Origin: an uncultured Planctomycetaceae bacterium
Lineage (GTDB): Bacteria > Planctomycetota > Planctomycetia > Pirellulales > Thermoguttaceae
Assembly: GCA_963789525.1 (NCBI GenBank)
Contig: CAWBLA010000009.1
Span: 332,999 to 396,998 of the forward strand
Direction: 5' to 3'
DNA length: 64,000 bases
Both the position numbers and the translations under genes were made by a program. This document shows positions 935 through 55,086 of the stretch, in pieces. Under the pieces are notes generated by a model. The model saw nothing but the letters and a program-made list of their open reading frames with translations, ran no database searches and was not told where the DNA came from. Position 1 is the stretch's first letter. Each line of letters begins with the position of its first letter.

Positions 935-1219
935 GCGCAGGGTCTTCAGACTCCGCGGCGTCCGCGAGCGGCTTGCGATTGGCGTCGCTCATGGTGTTGC
1001 CTTCCCCTTGTCAGGACAAGGTCGGCACGCCAGAAAAATGATTTCGGAGCTCAATGGCTGGCCTGCGTGTGCCCTTGTCAACGCTTCACCCGTCATGTTA
1101 CCATGACCGGCGCATGACTCAGGGCCAGGACGGGTCGCTAGCCCTTTCCCGTACGGCTCTTTCATCCGCTACTCCTTGCCGGCTTTGACCGGCGCTGTCC
1201 CTGACCCCTTTTGGGACCT

Positions 1220-3191
<1,972 letters not shown>

Positions 3192-3547
3192 CTTCGGCCC
3201 TCCCTGACGAACAACCTGTGGTGAGTCGCGACGCGTAAGAAGGATAGCGCGTGCGAGCCGAGGGACAAGGGCATGGGGAGGACAGCTTCCGACGAAGCGC
3301 GACACGGTGCGAAAAACAGCGATGCACCTGAAGTGCCGGGAAAAGGGCGGACAACACATTGAGACCGGAGAGCCCTTACCTGTCAATTTCCATCTTCTCC
3401 GATCGGCGACAGTCTCTTTTTCCTACCATGGGGACGGGGATTCATGGCGACGCCGCGGCACGACACTACGCCTTTCGTTGACGTCGTGGCATGCTTTTTG
3501 GCGACGATCATTTGCTCCGAGGAACTCGAGGGCTGGCCGGGGGCTCC

Positions 3548-8155: not shown

Positions 8156-8898
8156 AAGATTTTGCAGGGGAAGAAGGCATTGGTGACGGGTGGGTCGCGG
8201 GAATTGGGCGGGCAACCGTTTTGGCGCTGGCGGAAGCAGGGGCCGATGTCGCGATCAACTATCAGCGCTGCGCCGAGGCCGCCGAGACCGTCTGCCACGA
8301 CGCCCTCGAACTCGGCGTGCAGGCCCGAACGCATCAGGCCAACGTCTCGAACGAGGATGAGGCCAAACAAATGGTCGAAGACATCCTCGGCGATTGGGGG
8401 GCGATCGATATCTTGGTGAATAATGCCGGCATCACGCGCGACAAGTCGTTCCTCAAGATGTCGCGAACTGCGTGGGACGAAGTGTTGGGAGTGAATCTCA
8501 ACGGGGTCTTCAACATCACGAGGGCCGTTCTGCCGGGAATGGTCGAGGCGGGCTGGGGACGGGTCGTCAATATGGCTTCAATCGTCGGCCAGACCGGCAA
8601 CTTCGGCCAGGCCAATTACGCGGTGACCAAAGGGGGGCTCATCGCGTTGACAATGACGCTGGCCCGCGAGGTCGCGCGCAAAGGCGTGACGGTCAATGCG
8701 GTCGCGCCGGGGTTTATCGAAACGGACATGCTCAAGGAGATTCCCGAGGCCGGACTGGCCGCAATCAAGGCCATGACCCCGGTCGGCCGCCTGGGCAAGC
8801 CCGACGAGGTGGCGGCCGCGGTGGTGTTTTTGGCGAGTCCCCGGGCTAGCTTCGTTACCGGCCAAGTGATTCCGGTTAACGGCGGCATGTACATGTGA
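8156..8898 (+). CDS. fabG: Short-chain dehydrogenase/reductase, 3-oxoacyl-[ACP] reductase FabG-like
   Basis: GKKALVTGGSRGIGRA (after correcting a -1 slip in a G-run near 8212), NNAG, the SDR catalytic tetrad (...YAVTKGG...), and C-terminus PVNGGMYM. Start codon uncertain (possibly TTG at 8162). Confidence 0.7.
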
Positions 8899-9525: not shown

Positions 9526-11133
9526 ATGACCCAGACGCAATTTCAGGCGTCCACCTTGGAGGTGCGGGCGCCGGTCGCGCAGCCCTATGCGGAAATCTTC
9601 ACGCCCGACGCGCTGCATTTTGTCGAGCGACTTGTCGGCGAGTTCCAGGGCATGCGAGATCACCTTCTGGAAGCCCGCAAACAGCGGCAGCGCGAAATTG
9701 ACGCGGGCAACGTTCCCGATTTTCTCTTCGAGACCAGTCGAATCCGCCAGGACGATTGGTCCGTCGCGCCGATTCCCGAACGACCTTTGCGACCGCCGCG
9801 TGGAGATCACCGGCCCGACGGACCGGAAAATGATCATCAACGCGCTGAACTCCGGGGCCAACGTGTATATGGCCGATTTCGAGGACTCCAACTCGCCGAC
9901 GTGGCACAACCTGGTCGACGGGCAGCGAAATCTCTGCGATGCCGTCGATGGCACGATTGACTTCACAAGCCCGGAAGGGAAGCAGTACCGCCTCAATGCG
10001 CAGACCGCCACGTTGATGGTCCGGCCGCGCGGTCTGCATCTGCCGGAAAAACACGTGTGGTTCGGCGGCAGGCCGGTGCCGGGCTGCGCTGTTCGATTTC
10101 GGCTTGTTCTTCTTCCACAACGCCCAGAAGCTGCTGGACAAGGGCAGCGGCCCGTACTTCTATCTTCCCAAGCTGGAAAGCCACCTCGAAGCGCGGTTGT
10201 GGAACGAAGTGTTCCTCATGGCGCAAGACGAACTGGGCATCCCCCGCGGCAGCATCCGCGCCACGGTGCTGATCGAGACGATTCCCGCCGCCTTCGAGAT
10301 GGACGAAATCCTGTACGAGCTTCGCGGACCATTCGGCGGGGTTGAACTGCGGCCGCTGGGATTACATCTTCAGCATCATCAAGAAGTTCCGCAGCATCCC
10401 GAGTTCGCTGATGCCCGACCGGGCCCAGGTCACGATGACCACGCACTGCATGCGCTCGTACTCGCTGTTGGCGATCAAGACCTGCCATCGCCGCGGCATT
10501 CATGCCATCGGCGGCATGGCCGCGCAGATTCCGATCAAGAGCGACCCCGAGGCCAACGACAAGGCGCTGGAAGCGGTGCGGGCCGACAAGGTGCGCGAGG
10601 CGGGCGACGGGCACGACGGCACTTGGGTGGCCCATCCCGGGCTGGTCGGGTTGGCCAGGGCGGCATTCGACGCGAAGATGCCGGAGCCGAACCAGATCGG
10701 CCGCCGCCGCGACGACGTGCACGTCACGGCCCACGATCTGCTGACCGTGCCCGTCGGCAAAATCACCGAGCACGGCCTCTGCCACAACATCGACGTGGGC
10801 ATGCAATACATGGCGGCGTGGCTTGGCGGCAACGGCTGCGTGCCGCTCTACAACCTGATGGAAGACGCCGCCACGGCCGAAATCTCGCGCACCCAAATCT
10901 GGCAATGGGTCCACCATCCCAACGGCGTTCTCGTCGGACGGCCGCGAAGGTGACGCGGGAGATGATTCGCCGCCTGTTCGACGAGCAAATCGGACAAATT
11001 GCGACAGACCGTCGGCGAGGAGGAGTTTGCCCGTGGCAACTACGAGCAGGCCCGCGAGTTGATCGAAGAGATCGTGGTGAAGGACGATTTTACCGAGTTT
11101 ATGACGCTCGTCGGATACGAGCATTTGGACTGA
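9526..11133 (+). CDS. aceB: Malate synthase A
   Basis: Across four frames: [114 protein letters not shown]-terminus [37 protein letters not shown]-stop. Confidence 0.85.
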
Positions 11134-11177
11134 GCCGTTGCGAGGACTCGATCCGCGGCGGCCAGCGGAGGCGATTC

Positions 11178-12593
<1,416 letters not shown>

Positions 12594-12597
<4 letters not shown>

Positions 12598-14220
12598 TGC
12601 CCATGTTCGAAGAGTTTCAGCAAGCGGCGAAAACGATCTTCGAAGCCGCCCAACGCCGTGGAGCGCTGATCCGCAACCCTGGCACCGACCGGCTGAGGGC
12701 CCTTGCGCTGCAGGAGCCCGAGGTCAGGCAGACCGAGCTACGGCAGCCTCTACGCCGAGTCGGAACCGATGTCGCGGGCGGCCAAGAGGCACCGAGAACA
12801 ACGTCGACTCGCAGTTCGGCCACGACGAGCGCGAACTGCTGGAGCAGGCCAAGCACAGTCCTGGCCGACAAGAGAGTCTGATTTCGATCGACGTCGAGGT
12901 CGGCGACGGCACGCGAGGGAATCACCGCGCGGCTGATCGTGCCGCGGACGGTTCGCCCACGTCGCCTACGCGCGGCATGAAGCTGTTTCGAGCCGACCGC
13001 AACCGACGATCCCACCTACCAGGTGGTGATGTTCTTCGACGAGCGCGTTCGAGCAGAACAAGTCCGAAGCCGCTGCCGGAGAAGGACATCACCATCCGCC
13101 TGGCCCACGCCCCGGACGGCCGGATGGTCAAGTTCGTCCGCAACAGCAACTATTTCGGCGAATGGAAGAAGGGCGTGTTCGCCGGCGAAAACTATCGGGC
13201 GAAGCTGCACGGCGACGCCATCTTCCTCCACGCCGGCTGCCGCAAGGACACGCTGGAAAACCGCCGCGGCGTCTACGTGACCAACTACTCGCTGTTCGTG
13301 GCCCTCAGCGCCAACGGCAAGACCAGCACGACTTGCAAGGTGCTCGCCCGCAAGGGCCGCGAGCGATCGTGGCTGATCCAGGACGACGGCGGCACGCTCT
13401 ACCGCGACGGCCGGTTCCGCGGTTTCGAGGCCGGCGGGCTCTGTTCATCAAGACCGACTGCCTCAACCCCGGCGATCAGATCGAGGCCTACTACGCCTGC
13501 CTCCGTCAGAACACGTTCCTGGAGAACGTGTTCGTGACCGAGGACGGCAGCATCGACTTCTACGACTTGTCGCGGACCAGCAACGGCCGCGCCGTGGTCG
13601 AACGCCGCGACTTCATGCACGCGGCCAACGACATCAACGCCCGGCGGATCGACAACCTGTTCCTCATCACCCGCGGCAACATCATTCCCGCCGTGGCCAA
13701 GCTGACGCACGAGCAGGCGGCGGCCTTCATGGTGCTCGGCCAGTCGATGGAGTCGTCGGCCGGCGATCCGACGCAAGCCGGCAAGATCAAGAACGAGTTC
13801 TTCTACGACCCGTTCGTGGCCGGCGACCGCATCCGAGCACGCCAACCTGTTCTACGACATCCTCAAGTCCGACGGCCACATCAACTGCTACCTGTTGAAC
13901 ACCGGCTGGGTGGGCGAAGGAAACTCGTACCAGGACATCCGGCTGGCCGACACGATGGGCATTCTCGATTCGCTGTTCCGCGGCGGTGCGGAAGAGTGGT
14001 ACATGTCGCACAAGACCGGGCTGATGATCCCGCGCTCGGTCCGCGCCATCGACTCGATCCTGATGCATCCGGAGAAACTCTTCGCCGCGGCCGATTTCGA
14101 CGCCCGGCAGCAGGCGCTCAATCGCCATCGGGCAGAGTATATGGACAATTTCCCGGCCTCGATCCGCGGATCAAGGCCGTATTTCAAACCAAAGCGGCCG
14201 CAGTCGGCCAGGTGGCATAA
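12594..14220 (+). CDS. pckA: Phosphoenolpyruvate carboxykinase (ATP) family, divergent
   Basis: [15 protein letters not shown] (cf. YaGEmKKgiF), P-loop-like [52 protein letters not shown]...[17 protein letters not shown] (cf. LVNTGWnGtGkRIslkdTRaIIdAIlnG). Frameshifted. 5' end approximate. Confidence 0.65.
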
Positions 14221-46030: not shown

Positions 46031-49000
46031 TCATGCCTTGCTGCCTCGGACCGACGCAAGGTGTTGGCGGAGAAACGTCTTCAAATCGCCCCGGGCCAGG
46101 TCGTCGGTGCTGCGAAACTGGAGCCGGATGACATCGCGGTCGGGACGCTGGCCGTTGATCTCCGGGGTGTGGCCCAGCCCGGTGATCTGTCCCAAGGCGA
46201 AATGCCCTTTCGGGCCGGCCAAGTGCAGGTAGACGGCATCGGGCTTCTTCGTCTGCACGGCCGCCCAGGGCTCGTGCTGATCGGGCAAATGGACCGGCAC
46301 CACTTGCTTGTTGTTCCATAGGAACTGCCCTTGCGGCGCCGTCTCGGCCAGCAGTTCCATGAGATCCTCCAAAACCTCTACGTCCCAGTTGATCTTCTTG
46401 CCGAGCGAAAAACCACGGCGGGCAAAATGCCACGTCCGTCCAAGTTGCTTCCAGGGCTGGAGAATGTCCGACCGCTCCTGCAGCTTCTCGCGAAACCTGG
46501 CGAAGCCGGCCACGGCACGATCGACGAACTCCCAAAACTCGTTGCGGTTGACCTCTTCGTAGCTGTGCACCCGCAACTCGACCTCTTGCCACGGGCCGCG
46601 GAGGTTCTTGCATCGTACGCGAGGCTCGGTCCCGTACAGCGGCAGCTCGGGCACGTCGTTCAGTGGTCTCAACTGCAATTTGTCGACTAGCTCGTCGCGC
46701 TGGAACGTATTCCGCGCCGTGCGAAACTTCATCTTCAACAGCCACTCCTCACCCGTGATGGCGTGGAAGAACCAACCGTCCGACTTCTTAGCGGCTCGAA
46801 TTTCCACGACGCTTCGCGAGTTCCAATCGGTTTCGGCAAACAAGTTCGGGCCGGAGCGGTTGCGGCCTTGCCCGCTCGATGAAATAGTTCCGACCCCTTT
46901 TTCGATGCGGTCGACTACGTCGAGGAGGATGCGGCCGTCCCAGCGACAGGGATTGCCGGTCCGGCCGACGCGGTCGACCGTGTGCCAGCGCCGACCGTCG
47001 GCCTCCCACGGCATGCGAGCATTGTGGCCGACCTCGGCAATGTCGCGATCGCCGAGCCGGGCAGCCGCCTCGGCAGCGAAATCGAACGGTTTGCGCTCGA
47101 CCAGCGGCCCGGCGGCCAGTATCGGCGCCAGGGCTCTGGCGGTGTGGGACGTCAACGCCGCAGCACCCGGCACAAGTGCCGGGGCTAAACGACGCGGCGT
47201 TTTGCCGTGATTCCGTCCCCCGCCCCCCGTCTCCAATTTCTCGACTATCTCCTCCGGCGTGCCTGTGGCCACGACATAGCCGCCCTCGTCCCCGGCCTCG
47301 GGGCCCAGATCAATCACCCAGTCGGCGGTCTTGATCACGTCAAGATTGTGTTCGATCACTACGACGGTATTGCCGAGATCGACCAAGCGGTTGAGCACGT
47401 CGAGCAGCTTGGCCAGGTCGTCGAAGTGCAGCCCTGTGGTCGGCTCGTCCAGCACGTAGAGCGTCTGTCCCGTGTCGGGTCGGGCGAGTTCAGCGGCCAG
47501 CTTCACGCGCTGCGCCTCGCCGCCAGAAAGCGTCGGCGCCGGCTGGCCGAGCGTCAAGTAGTCAAGGCCGACATCGCAGAGCATTTCCAACGGCCGCCGG
47601 ATCTTTGGGATGTTCTCGAACAGCCGCACTGCCTGGGCACAGGACATGTCGAGGACATCGGCGATCGAGCGGCCGTGGTAACAGACCGCCAATGTTTCGG
47701 GATTGTAGCGGCGGCCGTGGCACGTGTCGCACTCGACCCACACGTCGGGCAAAAAGTGCATCTCGATGCAAAGCTGCCCGTTGCCCTCGCACTTTTCGCA
47801 GCGCCCGCCCGGCACGTTGAAGCTGAACCGCCGCGGCGTATAGCCGCGGAGCTTGGACTCGGGGAGCTGCGCGTAGAGCGAGCGTATCAGGTCGAACACC
47901 CCGGTAAACGTGGCCGGGTTCGACGTGGGCGTCTGTCCGAGCGGTTGTTGATCGACGCGGATCACCTTGTTGACTCGTTCGACGCCGCGAATCGCGTCGT
48001 GGGCGCCGGGAAAGGTTTTCGCGCGGTGGAGCGTTCGGGCCAGCGAGGCGAACAGCACGTCCTCGACCAGTGAGCTCTTGCCGCTGCCGCTGACGCCGGT
48101 GACGACGGTCAGCGTGCCTAGCGGAATGCGCACGTTGATATTCTTCAGGTTGTGGTGCCGGGCGCCGACGATCTCCAGCCAGCCTGTGGGAAGAGGGGAG
48201 GGGAGAGAGGAGAGAGGAGGGGGACCAGCCGCTCTTGTTCTTCGCCCCCTCTGCTTTCCCCTTTCTCCGCTCTCCCCCTTCTGCACTTCTTTCCTGGCCG
48301 CTGCATCCGCCGGTTGGTCGGCACGGGAATCGCCTTTTTGCCGGAGAGATACGGCCCGGTGACCGAACCGCGGCGCTTGGCGACTTGTGCCGGGCGCCTT
48401 GAGCCACGATCTGTCCGCCGCCAGAGCCGGCCGCGGGACCAAAGTCGAGCAGTTGATCGGCGTTGGCCACCACCTCACGATCGTGCTCGACGACCAGCAG
48501 TGTATTGCCCAGGTCGCGGAGCTTTCCAAGCGCCTGCAACAGCCGGCCATTGTCGCGTGGGTGCAGACCAATGGTGGGCTCGTCGAGCACGTAGAGCACT
48601 CCGCATAGGCCGCTACCGACTTGGGCCGCCAGTCGAATCCGCTGCATCTCGCCGCCGGACAGCGACGGCGCGGGCCGCGCGAGCGTGAGATACTCCAGCC
48701 CGACGTCAACGAGAAATTGCAGCCGGTTGCGAATTTCGCGCACGATCTCGCCGGCGATTTTTCGTTCGGAGGTCGATGGCCGCCAATTGCGAAAATCGTC
48801 CACGAGCCGACCGAGCGGCAAGCGGCAAAGCTCGTCGATCGTTCGCGGGCGCCCATGCCAAGGCGAACGGCCGCCGCGTCGTCGCGCAGCCGACTACCAC
48901 CACAAACAGAACACTCAACCTCGTCGACCAGGTGTTCGAGCTTCGTGCGGAAGCCCGGCGTAAGCCGGCTGGCTTCCTCCAAGGCAGGATAAAGTCCCTT

Positions 49001-50169
49001 GTACTGGAAACGGAACGAGGCCGAATGCGTCCCGTCCCCCGCCCCCGCCCCCCGTTCCCTCCCACATCGAACCATTGCTCGCCGGCGCCGTGGAAGATCA
49101 CGCGGCGATACCGACCGCTCAGTTGGTCGAAGGGCACGTCGATTGGCACGCCGGCGCCGCGCGAAAGAGCTTCAAGCATCGGTGCAAAAAGGCGACCGCC
49201 CGCGCTGGGCCACAGCGCGATGGCGCCCTCGGAGAGCGTGCGCTTCGGATCGCGCAACAGCGCGGCCGGATTCGTACCGGTTTGGATGCCGAGCCCTTCG
49301 CAGGCCGGGCACCATCCCAAGGCGCTATTGAACGAGAAATTGTGCGGCGAAAGCGGCTCGAAGCTCCGCCCGCAACGGTCGCAAACGAAGTGCTGGCTGT
49401 GCGTCTCGACGGGCCATTGCGGCTCAGGCATGTCGTCGCGCGGGTACACGGCCCTGAGCACTCCGCGGCCCAGCGCCAGCGCGTTCTCCACGCTGCCGGC
49501 GACGCGCGACCGGGAATCGCCGCGAATCGCCACGCGATCGATCACCACGTCGACGTCGTGCTTGCGGCGCCGGTCGATTTCTGGCGGCGCATCGACGGAA
49601 TACGTCCGCCCGTCGACCCGAATGCGCACGTAGCCGGACGCCCGGGTTTCGGCCCACAGGGTCTCATAGCGCTCGCCAACGCGGATTTCCAGCGGCGCCG
49701 TGAGAAACAGCTTGGTGCCGGCCGGATGGGCCATGATCTTCGCAATGATTTCATCGGCCGACTGGCTGCCGATACGCACGTCGCACGCCGGGCAATACGG
49801 CTGGCCGAGGCGCGACATGAGAATCCGCAGATAGTCGTAGATCTCCGTCACGGTGCCGACGGTGCTTCGCGGCGTGTGGCCCGAGTGCTTCTGCTCGATC
49901 GCCACGGCCGGCGACAAGCCCTCGATATGACCGACCTTCGGCTTCTGCATCTGGCCGACGAACTGCCGGGCGTAGGCGCTTAGGCTTTCGACGTACCGCC
50001 GCTGCCCTTCGGCATAGATCGTGTCCACAGCCAGCGATGTCTTGCCCGAGCCGCTGGGCCCGCAGCAGACGGTGAGTTGGTCGCGGGGAATGTCGACGTC
50101 GATCCCCTTGAGGTTGTGCTGTCGAGCCCCGCGAACCTTGATGAAGCGGGTGCGCGGAGTGCGGGACGG
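46031..50169 (-). CDS. UvrA paralog 2: both ATP-binding cassette (ABC) modules with both zinc fingers, a disordered linker insertion, and a ~350-aa C-terminal extension of unknown function
   Basis: ABC module 1 ([17 protein letters not shown]...[34 protein letters not shown]...CPACDV...CDRCGRSF...CPACEGLG...[14 protein letters not shown]...[14 protein letters not shown]) and ABC module 2 ([12 protein letters not shown]...[11 protein letters not shown]...CEKCEGNG...[10 protein letters not shown]...[15 protein letters not shown]...[14 protein letters not shown]) lie in different frames. The extension ...[29 protein letters not shown]...[18 protein letters not shown]...-stop is in-frame and non-repetitive. 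No stop or start codon separates it from uvrA-1 upstream. Confidence 0.7.
48186..48300. repeat. Low-complexity purine tract followed by a pyrimidine tract (mirror-like) inside the uvrA-2 inter-module linker
   Basis: gaagaggggaggggagagaggagagaggaggggga ... ccccctctgctttcccctttctccgctctcccccttctgcacttctttcc. On the coding strand this encodes an E/K/G/A-rich then an S/P/L-rich segment (...[27 protein letters not shown]...). Confidence 0.7.
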
Positions 50170-53100
50170 GAGGCTGGTTGCTTCAGCGGCGGCCGCACCG
50201 TGTTGGTGCGTTTCATGCGACCCGTCCGCGCGGAGCACTTTGCGCAGCACATCGCCGGTGTGCGATACGAATGGACGAGCGTTGGCTGCCGAGGCACCCG
50301 GCACGAGTGCCGGGGCTAAACGAGTCTTTCGGGGTTTCGGGATTTGGGGATTTGGGGATTTGATTTCGAGATTCGGGACTGACGCTTTGTGCCCATCCTG
50401 CTTCCCATTCCCCTTCCCACGCCCTTCATCCCCCGCCCCTCGTCCCCTGACAATCTCCTCCGGCGTGCCGGCGGCAACGACGTATCCGCCTGCCTCGCCA
50501 CCCTCGGGCCCCAGGTCGATAATCCAGTCGGCCGTTTTGACGACCTCGGTGTTGTGCTCGACAACCAGCACCGTGTTGCCGGCGTCGACAAAGGCGTGCA
50601 GTACCTTGAGCAGGAGTTGGATGTCGGCAAAGTGCAGGCCGGTGGTCGGCTCATCCAAGACGTAGAGCGTTCGTCCCGTGCTCTTCTTGACCAGCTCGCG
50701 TGCCAGTTTGACCCGCTGGGCCTCGCCGCCGGAAAGCGTGGGCGAGGGCTGGCCGAGCTTCATGTAGTCGAGCCCCACGTCGTGCAGCGTCTTCAGCTTA
50801 TGATGGATGGCCGGGATGTTCTCGAAGTGCCGCAGCGCCTCCTGGATGTCCATTTCCAACACGTCGGCGATCGACTTGCCCTTGTAGCGGATTTGCAGCG
50901 TCTCGCGATTGAAGCGGCGGCCCTCGCACACCGGGCAGGTCACCCAAACGTCAGCCAGGAAGTCCATCTCCAGCTTGTTCGAGCCGTTGCCCTCGCAGGC
51001 TTCGCAACGGCCGCCGCCGACGTTGAAGCTGAACCGGCCCGGCTTGTAGCCCCGCGCTTTTGCATCGGGCAACAGCGTGTAAAGACGGCGAATCTCATCG
51101 AACACCTTGATGTACGTCGCCGGATTCGAACGGGGCGTGCGGCCGATCGGCGACTGGTCGATGGCGATCATCTTGTCGAGATGCTCGAGGCCGTCGATCC
51201 GCTCGTGTGCGCCGGGATTGCCGATGCCGCCGTTGAGATCGCGCCGCAGCGCCTCGACCAGGATGTCGCTGGCCAACGAACTCTTGCCCGAACCCGAAAC
51301 GCCGGTAACGCAGACGAATACACCGAGTGGAATCTCGACGTCGACATTTTTGAGGTTGTTGTGCGTGGCGCCGCGGACGACGAGTCGGGCGTCGCCGACC
51401 GGCCGCCGCCGGGCGGGAATTTCAATCCGCCGTTGGCCTGAAAGGTATTGCCCGGTGAGGCTCTTGGGCTCGGCCATCAGCCGGTCGACGGGGCCGCTCG
51501 CTACGACGTGCCCGCCGCGGACGCCGGGGCCGGGACCAAAATCGACGATGTGGTCGGCGGCCCGCATCGTATCCTCGTCGTGTTCGACCACGACGACCGT
51601 GTTGCCCTGGTCGCGAAGCCGGGCGAGCGTCGCCAGCAGGCGGTCGTTGTCGCGCGGATGCAGTCCGATCGACGGTTCATCGAGGATGTACAGCACGCCC
51701 ACCAATCCGCAGCCGATCTGGCCGGCCAACCGGATGCGCTGCATCTCGCCGCCGGAAAGCGTTGGCGCCGTCCGGTCGAGCGTGAGATATTCCAGCCCGA
51801 CGTTCTTGAGAAATCCGAGCCGCCCGCGAATCTCCTTGAGCACGTCGTCGGCGATCTTCTCGCCGGTGGCGTCAAGCGCCAGGGCACAAAAGAACTCTGC
51901 GGCTTCGGATACCGCCAAGGCGCAGACCTCGGGCAGCGTGTGCTCGGGTCGGTCGCTGAAGCGGGGCGCAAGGCTCGTCACTGTCACGGCCCGGGCCTGT
52001 GGGTTCAGCCGGGCGCCGTGGCAGCGGCCGCAATCGAGAATCCGCATGTACTTCTCAAGCTGGCGGCGCTGGAGCCGGCTCTTCGTGGTGCGGTATTGCG
52101 AAAGCAGCTTGGGGATGATGCCTTCGTACTTGCCGCCCCACTTGTAGCCCGACGGACCGCTGCGCCATGTGAACGTAATATGCGAGTCGCCTGTCCCCCA
52201 GAGCAGGGCCTGCTGGAGCCGAGGATCGAGCTCTTCCCACGCCGTTTCCAAAACGGTGCCGCCGGGCAAGCCGTGCTCGCGTTCGAGCATTGCCGCGACG
52301 CCGCGGTAAATGTGCCGCCGCCATCGCCCCATGTCGCGCCACGTGCCGACCAATCGAACGCAGCCCTGTTGAAACGACCGGCTTGGATCAGGTACTAACC
52401 GCTCCGGATCGAACGTGTAGATCGCGCCCAGGCCGTCGCATTCGGGACACATCCCTTGCGGGCTGTTGAAGCTGAACAACTGGGGGCTGGGCGGCTCAAA
52501 GCTCAGGTTGCAGTGAGTGCAGGCATAGTGGGCCGAGAGAGAGAGTGAGGGTTCGAGGGACGAGGGGTCGGGGGCGGGTGCCTCGCTACCGCTCTCATGC
52601 CCGTCGTCTTCCTCGCCTTCCATGGCTGCGACAAGATTGCCTTCGCCGAGCCGCAACGCCAACTCCACGGCTTCGGCCAGACGCGGACGGATCTTGGGAC
52701 CGACCACTAACCGGTCGACAACGACCTCGATGGCGTGCCGCATCTGGCGGTCCAGCCGCAGGTTGTCGCTAAGCCGGACCACGCGACCATCGACCCGCGC
52801 GCGGGCGAAGCCCTGTTTGAGCAGATCGTCAAACAGGTCGCGATACTCGCCCTTCTGCCCGCGGACCAGTGGCGCCAAGACCGAAAATCGTGTCCCGGCC
52901 GGCAGCGCCAAAATCTGCTCAATAATCTGTTCGCGCGTCTGCGCGGTGATCGGGCGGCCGCATTGCGGGCAGTGCCCCTTGCCGACCCGCGCGAACAACA
53001 CCCGCAAGTAATCGTAAATCTCGGTGATCGTGCCGACGGTGGAGCGCGGGCTTTGCCCTCCCGACTTCTGCGAGATCGAGATAGCCGGATTCAGCCCGCT

Positions 53101-53334
53101 GATGAGATCGACGTCGGGCTTGGGCATCTGGCCGAGAAACTGCCGGGCGAAGCTGGAGAGGCTCTGCACATAGCGGCGCTGTCCCTCGGCGTAAAGCGTG
53201 TCGAAGGCCAGCGAGCTCTTGCCCGACCCGCTCACGCCCGTAAAACAGATCAGGCGATTCCGCGGCAGCACCAAATCGACATCGCGAAGGTTATGTTCCC
53301 GCGCACCGCGAATCAGAATGTCGGAAGCAGGCAT
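50170..53334 (-). CDS. uvrA: Excinuclease ABC subunit A (class I)
   Basis: MPASDILIRGAREHNLRDVDL...[23 protein letters not shown]..., both zinc fingers, UvrB-binding and insertion domains, two LSGGE signatures, C-terminus ...GTPEEIV...SHTGDVLRKVL. Intact. The 3' boundary is set at the start of the second UvrA module because no stop codon intervenes. Confidence 0.85.
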
Positions 53335-53670
53335 GAGCGGGCGGGGTGTGAAGTACGTGGACGGATCAAAACACGTAATTGTATCAGATTGCGGCGAGTG
53401 ACGGCGGGGGCGGTTCGTTCCATGCGAATGCACCATGCGGGGCGGATCGAACGTAGCGAGCCGCGTCAATTGGGTCTTTCGAAGCAGCTTCTCAGTGTCG
53501 AATAGCCGTCATTCTTTACGCATACCTCCCAGTTGTCCGTATCCCGGAAAACCTGGGCGTTAGAGTTAATGCCACCGGAAAAATCGGACGATCCGTTAGA
53601 AGCGTGACTATCGTTACAGGTAGCAAAGTCGCTCCATGCGGCACGCTTGATGTTTCTTTAGGGGGGAATC

Positions 53671-55086
53671 ATGAACAGTACAAGTGTGGGGGTACGCGCA
53701 CTCGGTACTCTGGTTTTCGTCGCCGGCATCTTGTTTGGGGCCGGCGAATCTCAGGCCGCCAACGGTCCAGGAAAACTCTTACCGACACCCGCTCCGAGTG
53801 GCAAGGTCACGGTCCGACACTCGAAGGCCGAACCTGTGCCTACGCCGGAGGCTGAGGAGCCGACCGGGACGGTCATTGAGGCCCCCCCATCCGACGTCGA
53901 TGAAGGGCCCTACGCCTATGACGACACAGAGTGCGGGGACTTCAGCGGCCTGTGCAGTCCTCCGGGGCGGTTCTGGCTGCGGGGCGAGTACCTCAGTTGG
54001 TGGACCAATGGCCAGACGATTCCGCCGCTGGTAACGACCAGTCCGCAGGGGACTTCCCGCTCGGCGGCCGGCGTCTTGCCCGCTGCCACGGTCCTCTATG
54101 GCCTTGACACGGTCAACACCGATGGCCATTCGGGCTTTCGCAGCACGCTTGGCTTCTGGCTCGACGCCTGTCACGTCTGGGGAGTGGAGTTTGACTACTT
54201 CAATATCGGCGAGCGAGACAACGGCTTCGCCCAAACTTCAACCGGCAATCCGATCCTCGCCCGGCCGTTTTTCAACGTCGAAACCAATCAGCAGGCCAGC
54301 GAATTGACGGCCTATCCGGGCATCGCTGAAGGAACGCTCTCGGTCGAAGCCCGCGACTACTTCCATTCGGGCGGTATCACGCTCACCTACGGACTCTGTT
54401 CGTGCGATTCGTGCTGTGATTCGTGCGGTGATCCATGCGGCGATGCCTGCGACACCAGTTGCTGCCCGGCATTGTTCTGCTGCCGGACCGACCTGTTGGT
54501 CGGCTTCCGTTACTACAACCTCAGTGATCGGGTGGGCATTCACGAGTTCGTTCGGGACATCAATCCCCAGAGCGTCTCGCTGGGTTCCACGTTCGACATC
54601 CTCGACAGCTTCTCCGCGAAGAACGACTTCTACGGGGCGGACATCGGCTTGCGAACCCAGATCTTCCGCGGCCGGTTCTCTCTGGATCTGCTTACCAGGG
54701 TGGCGATCGGCAACAATCACGAGACCATCGTGATCAACGGCCAGACGATGATTGCCGCGCCCAGCCAGCCGACGCAGACGTACGGCTCAGGAATCCTGGC
54801 CGGGCCAACCAACACCGGCACGTTCCAGCGCAACGTATTCACCATGATCCCGCAGTTGGGCCTCGAACTTGGCTACCAGGTGAACTGCCATTGGCGGGCA
54901 TTTGTGGGCTACGACGTGATCTACTGGGGCTGCGTGGCGCGATCCGGTGACCAGATTGACCTGAACCTCGATCCGCGCAACTTCCCGCCGGCCACCGAGG
55001 GCGGCCTGCCCTTCCCGGCCTTCAGCGGTCGGTCCGCGTGCTTCTGGGCGCAAGGAGTCAACGTGGGCGGAGAGTTCCGTTTCTAA
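53671..55086 (+). CDS. BBP7-family (planctomycete) outer-membrane beta-barrel protein
   Basis: Signal peptide MNSTSVGVRALGTLVFVAGILFGAGESQA, FWLRGEYLSWW motif, Cys-rich loop CSCDSCCDSCGDPCGDACDTSCC, C-terminal GGEFRF. Intact 471 aa. Confidence 0.65.
   Translation: MNSTSVGVRALGTLVFVAGILFGAGESQAANGPGKLLPTPAPSGKVTVRHSKAEPVPTPEAEEPTGTVIEAPPSDVDEGPYAYDDTECGDFSGLCSPPGRFWLRGEYLSWWTNGQTIPPLVTTSPQGTSRSAAGVLPAATVLYGLDTVNTDGHSGFRSTLGFWLDACHVWGVEFDYFNIGERDNGFAQTSTGNPILARPFFNVETNQQASELTAYPGIAEGTLSVEARDYFHSGGITLTYGLCSCDSCCDSCGDPCGDACDTSCCPALFCCRTDLLVGFRYYNLSDRVGIHEFVRDINPQSVSLGSTFDILDSFSAKNDFYGADIGLRTQIFRGRFSLDLLTRVAIGNNHETIVINGQTMIAAPSQPTQTYGSGILAGPTNTGTFQRNVFTMIPQLGLELGYQVNCHWRAFVGYDVIYWGCVARSGDQIDLNLDPRNFPPATEGGLPFPAFSGRSACFWAQGVNVGGEFRF

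Follow-up and report, generated by a model that had tools for sequence, protein, structure and literature searches.

The window, a 64,000-nucleotide stretch of contig CAWBLA010000009.1 from an uncultured Planctomycetaceae bacterium (GCA_963789525.1), carries on its minus strand, at 46031..53334, what is very probably a single uvrA-uvrA-tail gene, encoding a "single-chain UvrA dimer with a tail" of ~2435 residues. With similarly high confidence, we regard this giant UvrA as the protein with which Pirellulales-type planctomycetes ordinarily sense damage for nucleotide excision repair. As judged from sequence, the polypeptide comprises two full UvrA units, which between them have four ATPase sites that look competent and two UvrB-binding domains, and a single tail. 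The second unit is interrupted in the window by four changes of reading frame, which are most likely single-base deletions introduced during sequencing or assembly. An earlier sequence-only reading of this DNA, made from the letters and a list of open reading frames (ORFs), had drawn attention to the tandem arrangement, to the frame changes and to the C-terminal extension.

Gene layout, the two UvrA units and their orthologs

The following features make up the gene:

46031..53334, minus strand: whole giant uvrA gene, from ATG 53334 to TGA 46031-46033, delimited by colinearity with the intact ortholog L007
50233..53334, minus strand: UvrA unit 1, intact, 1034 aa, with two ATP-binding cassette (ABC) modules, a UvrB-interaction domain and an insertion (DNA-binding) domain, from profile scores
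50146..50232, minus strand: inter-unit linker, 29 aa, stop-free on translation; the junction is likewise open in all intact orthologs
47117..50145, minus strand: UvrA unit 2, ~1000 aa, from tblastn with unit 1, L007 and a second ortholog, L006, and from Pfam and NCBIfam scores
46034..47116, minus strand: C-terminal extension, 361 aa, a conserved domain without a sequence-family match

In the ORF list, the gene appears as two long minus-strand ORFs, 48706..53469 (1587 aa) and 46031..49075 (1014 aa), which overlap by 370 nt, while ORF 47562..48821 on the same strand occupies the third frame. The first of these was said in the sequence-only reading to contain a complete class-I UvrA and to continue without a stop into the N-terminus of a second one, and both statements hold. 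The protein of unit 1 begins MPASDILIRGAREHNL at ATG 53334 and ends ...SHTGDVLRKVL at 50233, and the linker at 50232..50146 leads directly into unit 2. With unit 1 as the tblastn query, unit 2 was mapped to 50142..47117. It is complete by homology, passing through frames 3>2>1>3>2 in four -1 steps, in agreement with the earlier remark that the rest of copy 2 lies in other frames; these steps amount to four apparent 1-nt deletions. The 7301 nt from start to stop, together with four 1-nt additions, give 7305 nt, or 2435 codons. The frame of ORF 46031..49075 encodes the second ABC module of unit 2, which is intact, followed by the usual UvrA end (47149..47117) and another 361 residues up to TGA 46031.

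The two units share 62.5% identity across their first ~120 aa and likewise in the C-terminal ABC module, 57-62% in the ABC cores (tblastn) and 42% over the N-terminal part (378 residues). The identity of ~65% proposed earlier was therefore close to the mark for the ABC cores and the extreme N-terminus, but not for the N-terminal part as a whole. At 42-62% identity, unit 2 is a real paralog, as had been proposed, and the possibility that it is an assembly duplicate was rejected.

To judge by their profile scores and motifs, both units are complete class-I-type UvrAs, each with two ABC ATPase modules and with UvrB-interaction, insertion/DNA-binding and zinc modules. Against NF001503, the NCBIfam equivalog for UvrA (cut-off 1147), unit 1 scored 1349 bits; it scored 1325 bits against TIGR00630 (cut-off 729.8), with 126 bits for the UvrB-interaction domain PF17760 and 65 bits for the insertion/DNA-binding domain PF17755. 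Unit 2 of the window can be scored only piecewise: its N-terminal part gave 108 bits for PF17760 and 40 bits for PF17755, and its C-terminal ABC half gave 536 bits to NF001503. Unit 2 of L007, taken alone, reached 1261 bits against NF001503 and 1235 bits against TIGR00630, exceeding both cut-offs, and the whole L007 protein contains two PF17760 and two PF17755 stretches. Four intact sets of the Walker A (GxSGSGK[ST]), signature (LSGGE), Walker B (L[YF]xLDEP) and H-loop (xEH) motifs were read off the window translations; one Walker B reads LYVLDEPT. A class II UvrA, or UvrA2 (DrrC-like), had been suggested as an alternative identity for unit 2. This is excluded because unit 2 carries the UvrB-binding domain, and the equivalog-level score of its counterpart in L007 speaks against it as well.

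Tail-encoding loci were sought in one genome per GTDB species, which yielded 495 loci, and 80 of these were fetched and examined. For each locus, the tail frame was followed upstream to the first stop, a procedure that needs ~7 kb of upstream DNA. Among the fetched loci with at least ~7 kb upstream, 38 could be read as a single unbroken ORF, 2334-2627 aa long with a median of 2413. The records of these 38 loci bear the titles Pirellulales, Thermoguttaceae or Planctomycetaceae, and 31 of the 38 assemblies are not of the MFD 'contig_N' kind. The L007 protein (2374 aa, intact) matches the window in the same linear order all the way from 53364 to 46043, with 78-88% of residues identical (tblastn). 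None of the intact orthologs has a stop or start at the junction of units 1 and 2, or a stop after ABC module 2, the places at which the sequence-only reading had suggested looking for them. The comparison with related Pirellulales loci, also suggested there, thus recovered the same tandem, extended architecture, and of the two explanations offered it is the UvrA-UvrA translational fusion that is borne out. The fused double UvrA is the standard uvrA of the Pirellulales-type clade.

The frame breaks in unit 2

Relative to L007, the window contains exactly four frame steps (tblastn), every one of them -1 and all lying within 49065..48184:

~49016..49065 (step between 49063 and 49015), minus strand: frame break 1, in a poly-G tract (G6, G5 and G5 runs) coding for a variable Gly-rich loop
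48849..48862 (step at ~48860-48851), minus strand: frame break 2, after ...AAVRLG, beside GGG/CCC runs
48392..48396 (step at ~48393), minus strand: frame break 3, in a C run that is 1 nt shorter than in L007 and L006 in the DNA alignment
48184..48304, minus strand: frame break 4, in the low-complexity linker that joins the ABC modules of unit 2, where purine-rich sequence gives way to pyrimidine-rich sequence

At break 3, one added base restores the reading in the DNA alignment with L007 and L006. The linker at break 4 is not conserved among orthologs in the DNA alignment. The segments between the breaks are 82-88% identical to L007 at the amino-acid level, compared with 78-79% elsewhere in the gene, and have no internal stops. 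The poly-G tract and the low-complexity insertion between the ABC modules are present as first described, but their interpretation as the biology of a split gene is not upheld. Indels introduced by error, in an assembly rich in such errors, most likely account for the frame changes.

Only the divergent neighbour of the giant uvrA is conserved as flanking synteny. This gene (53671-55086, plus strand) is homologous to genes named BBP7 (PF07585, putative beta-barrel porin), and more than 40 related loci keep it beside the giant uvrA; the window copy is intact. Because this sole conserved neighbour is unbroken, errors in flanking genes were instead checked with a codon-usage frame plot and with Pfam coordinates. 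The plot, drawn over the whole window, revealed same-strand frame changes at several other places, and the following genes were examined:

1119..3386, minus strand: acetyl-CoA synthetase, in three frames with consecutive Pfam profile coordinates
9587..10950, plus strand: malate synthase, in three frames covering profile positions 1-48, 32-107 and 111-247
12977..14217, plus strand: phosphoenolpyruvate (PEP) carboxykinase, in two frames covering profile positions 168-253 and 255-361
~11100-12594, plus strand: isocitrate lyase, matched only by the C-terminal end of the profile (406-526), in one ORF

Isocitrate lyase is probably split in the same way. These four genes form an acetate/glyoxylate-shunt/gluconeogenesis cluster. 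The window is an indel-error-rich assembly, and findings within it that are based on frameshifts are to be distrusted.

A similar pattern was observed across the related loci. The giant uvrA was broken in 11 of 16 'MFD ... contig_N' metagenome-assembled genomes (MAGs), whereas only one of 32 others (k141_, NODE_ etc.) was affected (Fisher p = 2e-6). The naming of the 'contig_N' records suggests that they are long-read assemblies. Their breaks, 1-8 per gene, are scattered along its length. It is because the shifted segments are conserved, other genes of the window are split, and breaks concentrate in 'contig_N' MAGs that we consider the four frame changes to be very likely artefacts. This judgement was made from assembled sequence, and the sequencing technology of the window was likewise deduced.

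Three points weigh against an artefact. The four breaks are crowded into 0.9 kb, denser than in the rest of the gene. Assembled sequence also leaves real mutations a small probability. Both of these points would favor the view that unit 2 is a true pseudogene, carrying real frameshift mutations, with the first UvrA ending in junk. However, the shifted segments are more similar to L007 than is the gene on average and have no in-frame stops, the 2.1 kb downstream (ABC module plus extension) is fully open, essential central-metabolism genes of the window are broken alike, and other long-read-style MAGs have the giant uvrA broken at scattered sites. We therefore consider a pseudogene improbable. 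The third point concerns L028, a short-read NODE contig that is also broken, once, at the inter-ABC linker of unit 2 (8774-8870). L028 is the sole broken giant uvrA outside the 'contig_N' MAGs, and its break site matches break 4 of the window. This shared site may be hard for any technology, or it may reflect an occasional real polymorphism.

An error-prone assembly could also have erased the stops and starts of genes that are really separate, two or three in number (uvrA1, uvrA2 and a gene for the tail), and this assembly is demonstrably error-prone. Nevertheless, the 38 independent assemblies, 31 of them not of the 'contig_N' kind, read through both junctions in one frame, and a library of representative clusters includes proteins of 2334 and 2343 aa that carry the tail at residues ~1990-2337; separate genes are accordingly very improbable. 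Programmed ribosomal frameshifting or recoding that joins the frames of unit 2, for which the location of frame changes in homopolymer or low-complexity tracts might speak, is effectively refuted, as orthologs code for the same residues in a single frame, four consecutive shifts would be unprecedented, and unrelated genes of the window also change frame.

Of the four frame errors in the window, two fall in G/C-rich or low-complexity tracts. Low-complexity linkers occur on the minus strand at ~50250-50400 (tail of unit 1), 48190-48300 (between the ABC modules of unit 2) and 47150-47260 (tail of unit 2). All three are rich in Gly/Glu/Arg/Lys and then in Ser/Pro/Leu, the DNA being purine-rich and then pyrimidine-rich. 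Linkers are found at equivalent positions in L006, P0020, P0025 and P0029, with sequences that differ wholly between orthologs. A hairpin predicted in the unit 2 linker was rejected as a structured element, its stability being no greater than that of shuffled sequence (z = -0.01).

The C-terminal tail

The extension of ~350 residues that the sequence-only reading had noticed in one frame, without a recognised motif, proved to be 361 residues long, and no well-known family claims it by sequence. At default thresholds, Pfam and NCBIfam gave no match to the tail, and neither did a profile search of PDB sequences. With the limit relaxed to E <= 10, HTH_32 (PF13565) alone produced scores, all sub-threshold, on the Trp-rich PW...W..L motif in 10 of 15 family members, the window protein not among them; membership was not accepted, as all scores (at most 29 bits) were under the gathering threshold of 33.7 bits.

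Homologs of the tail numbered 428 at E <= 1e-3; every one that bears a name is called excinuclease ABC subunit A, and Planctomycetota account for every source named. When 1.84 billion cluster representatives were searched exhaustively with a profile, 624 clusters (50% identity) were found at the same threshold. In every listed protein that was long enough, the tail is C-terminal (e.g. residues 1995-2337 of 2343, 1987-2327 of 2334, and 1395-1737 of 1750), and UvrA sequence precedes it in all four library sequences that were read. The alignment runs from a variable low-complexity linker through the conserved UvrA end RS[YH]TGEALAPVLAAGP to ~345 well-conserved residues. L003, L038 and L059 gave longer matches to the tail.

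On sequence evidence, the tail is an internal duplication of a module of ~150-185 aa. Its halves are mutually homologous (hhalign probability 94%, E = 9e-8), each opens with PWxxxGRxWH...G....W(D/E)..(I/V)L, and the tail contains 12-15 tryptophans. The two repeats were delimited by hhalign and predicted structure:

46466..47020, minus strand: extension repeat 1, MPWExDGRRWHT...PCRWDGRIL followed by an alpha-beta3-alpha-beta2-alpha domain
46034..46465, minus strand: extension repeat 2, QPWKxLGRxWHFxRxGF...W..EVLE followed by an alpha-beta3-alpha-beta2-alpha domain

A loop of 19 residues in repeat 1 (46844..46900, minus strand) is specific to the window and absent from 19 aligned orthologs; it overlaps the sole low-confidence stretch of the AlphaFold model.

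The AlphaFold2 model of the tail, built from a 79-sequence alignment, has a mean predicted local distance difference test (pLDDT) score of 93 and a predicted template modelling (pTM) score of 0.79, and consists of two alpha-beta3-alpha-beta2-alpha domains. Among structural neighbours, YdhG scored best, followed by "double-wing" DNA binders, namely YjbR/DUF419 and the MotA C-terminal domain (CTD). YjbR and MotCF are presented in PMC7641849 as "double-wing" DNA binders whose fold resembles that of CyaY and which are sometimes fused to nucleases. These resemblances suggest that both domains of the tail are of the YdhG/YjbR/MotA-CTD type, with an alpha/beta "double-wing" fold like that of CyaY. 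A tail folded in this way would most likely act as an additional module for DNA contact or partner docking, with one copy in each pseudo-dimer. Taken separately, DNA binding and protein docking are each less likely than not, DNA binding being given slightly more weight, and the remaining probability is assigned to neither.

Several results weigh against this assignment of fold and role. Sequence identity in the fold resemblance is only 6-11%, which counsels caution, and no solved structure spans both tail domains. A Foldseek search of the first tail model against the PDB returned nothing significant, and neither PF04237 (MmcQ/YjbR) nor PF08818 (YdhG-like/DUF1801) was found in 15 tail sequences at E <= 10. 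The isoelectric point of the tail (6.0-9.6) is not consistently basic and lends no support to generic DNA binding. The same fold, moreover, serves frataxin-type iron binders and type III secretion chaperones. The tail could instead be a module that does not bind DNA, either docking or chaperone-like (e.g. for UvrB, Mfd/RNA polymerase or membrane-associated partners) or iron-binding in the manner of CyaY/YdhG. We consider this less likely than not, since double-wing DNA binders (YjbR/DUF419 and MotA-CTD) come directly behind YdhG among the best-scoring neighbours and the tail is fused to a DNA-damage sensor.

Returning to the DNA-contacting or partner-docking module, it is possible that the tail represents an undescribed, clade-specific accessory family, a tandem double-wing/CyaY-like pair with a Trp-rich leader, which would make the sensor asymmetric and add a DNA- or lesion-contacting surface or a docking site. 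If this were true, it would be a new way to build and regulate a bacterial nucleotide-excision-repair sensor. In any case, the tail is an unannotated domain family that merits a Pfam entry.

Comparison with known UvrA proteins and proposed mechanism

UvrA works as a homodimer that loads UvrB. By analogy with this homodimeric UvrA, the two units of the giant protein would fold back on each other, so that the usual UvrA dimer is formed intramolecularly, and the fusion would create an obligate dimer that bypasses concentration-dependent dimerisation. The covalent link would let the halves diverge, to the 42-62% identity observed here, yielding a pseudo-heterodimer that may still bind two UvrB, and the single tail would break the two-fold symmetry. 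Whereas the well-studied UvrA depends on a symmetric homodimer, a single-chain form with diverged halves and a tail is fixed in hundreds of planctomycete species. It might therefore serve as a natural experiment on which functions of the dimer (ATPase sites, UvrB loading, lesion contact) require symmetry.

Each unit resembles canonical class I UvrA (NF001503 / TIGR00630; E. coli, Geobacillus) in its equivalog-level score, its UvrB-interaction and insertion domains and its ATPase motifs. Unlike the canonical protein, the units of the window are covalently joined, 42-62% identical to each other, interspersed with lineage-variable low-complexity linkers and followed by a tail, so that the whole is ~2.5 times as long as E. 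coli UvrA. A tandem UvrA-UvrA polypeptide is also represented by the Chlamydia-type model NF001885 / PRK00635, a profile of 1809 positions. We take this double-length model to belong to the Chlamydiae, which share the Planctomycetes-Verrucomicrobia-Chlamydiae (PVC) superphylum with the planctomycetes. With 1340 bits against NF001885, for which the cut-off is 3054, an intact ortholog does not qualify as an equivalog of this model; the Chlamydia profile lacks anything that corresponds to the tail and is ~600 residues shorter. For its part, the tail has no detectable sequence similarity to MmcQ/YjbR (PF04237, DUF419), YdhG-like (DUF1801) or T4 MotA C-terminal domains, and differs from YjbR, YdhG and MotA in its two tandem domains, its Trp-rich PWxxxGRxWH...W..(I/V)L leaders and its fusion to ABC ATPases.

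Doubling of uvrA by fusion in Planctomycetes has been reported previously (Mahajan et al. 2021, Front Microbiol 12:643045, Fig. 13; PMC8567305), and the gene in the window likewise holds two uvrA units in one open frame. The passages of that report on the fusion describe the doubling only, in terms of Pfam domains, and not the ~350-aa C-terminal domain of the window protein. Literature searches for 'class III UvrA' and for a C-terminal extension of Planctomycetota UvrA gave nothing relevant in the searchable literature. Of the features described here, the fusion is already in print as the rule for this phylum; the tail is the one for which the searchable literature offers no description. With 495 tail-encoding loci, ~38 of them with the whole ORF, and this prior report, the fusion is not as unusual as had been supposed. 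The gene also holds a lesson for annotation, in that error-rich long-read MAGs routinely split this 7.3-kb gene into 2-8 ORFs, and the split-off tail is then called "excinuclease ABC subunit A, partial" or a hypothetical protein.

Finally, each UvrA unit has an in-frame 36-nt segment in its C-terminal tail, at 47157-47192 and 50288-50323, with 92% identity between the two sites. The segment carries the palindrome CCCGGCAC-NN-GTGCCGGG, which has two matches in the window, with none expected by chance. L003, the closest relative, has the palindromic segment at 9892-9909, within its unit 2 tail. Gene conversion between the tails of the units is one possible origin; the segment could also be a small palindromic insert that is tolerated in linkers.

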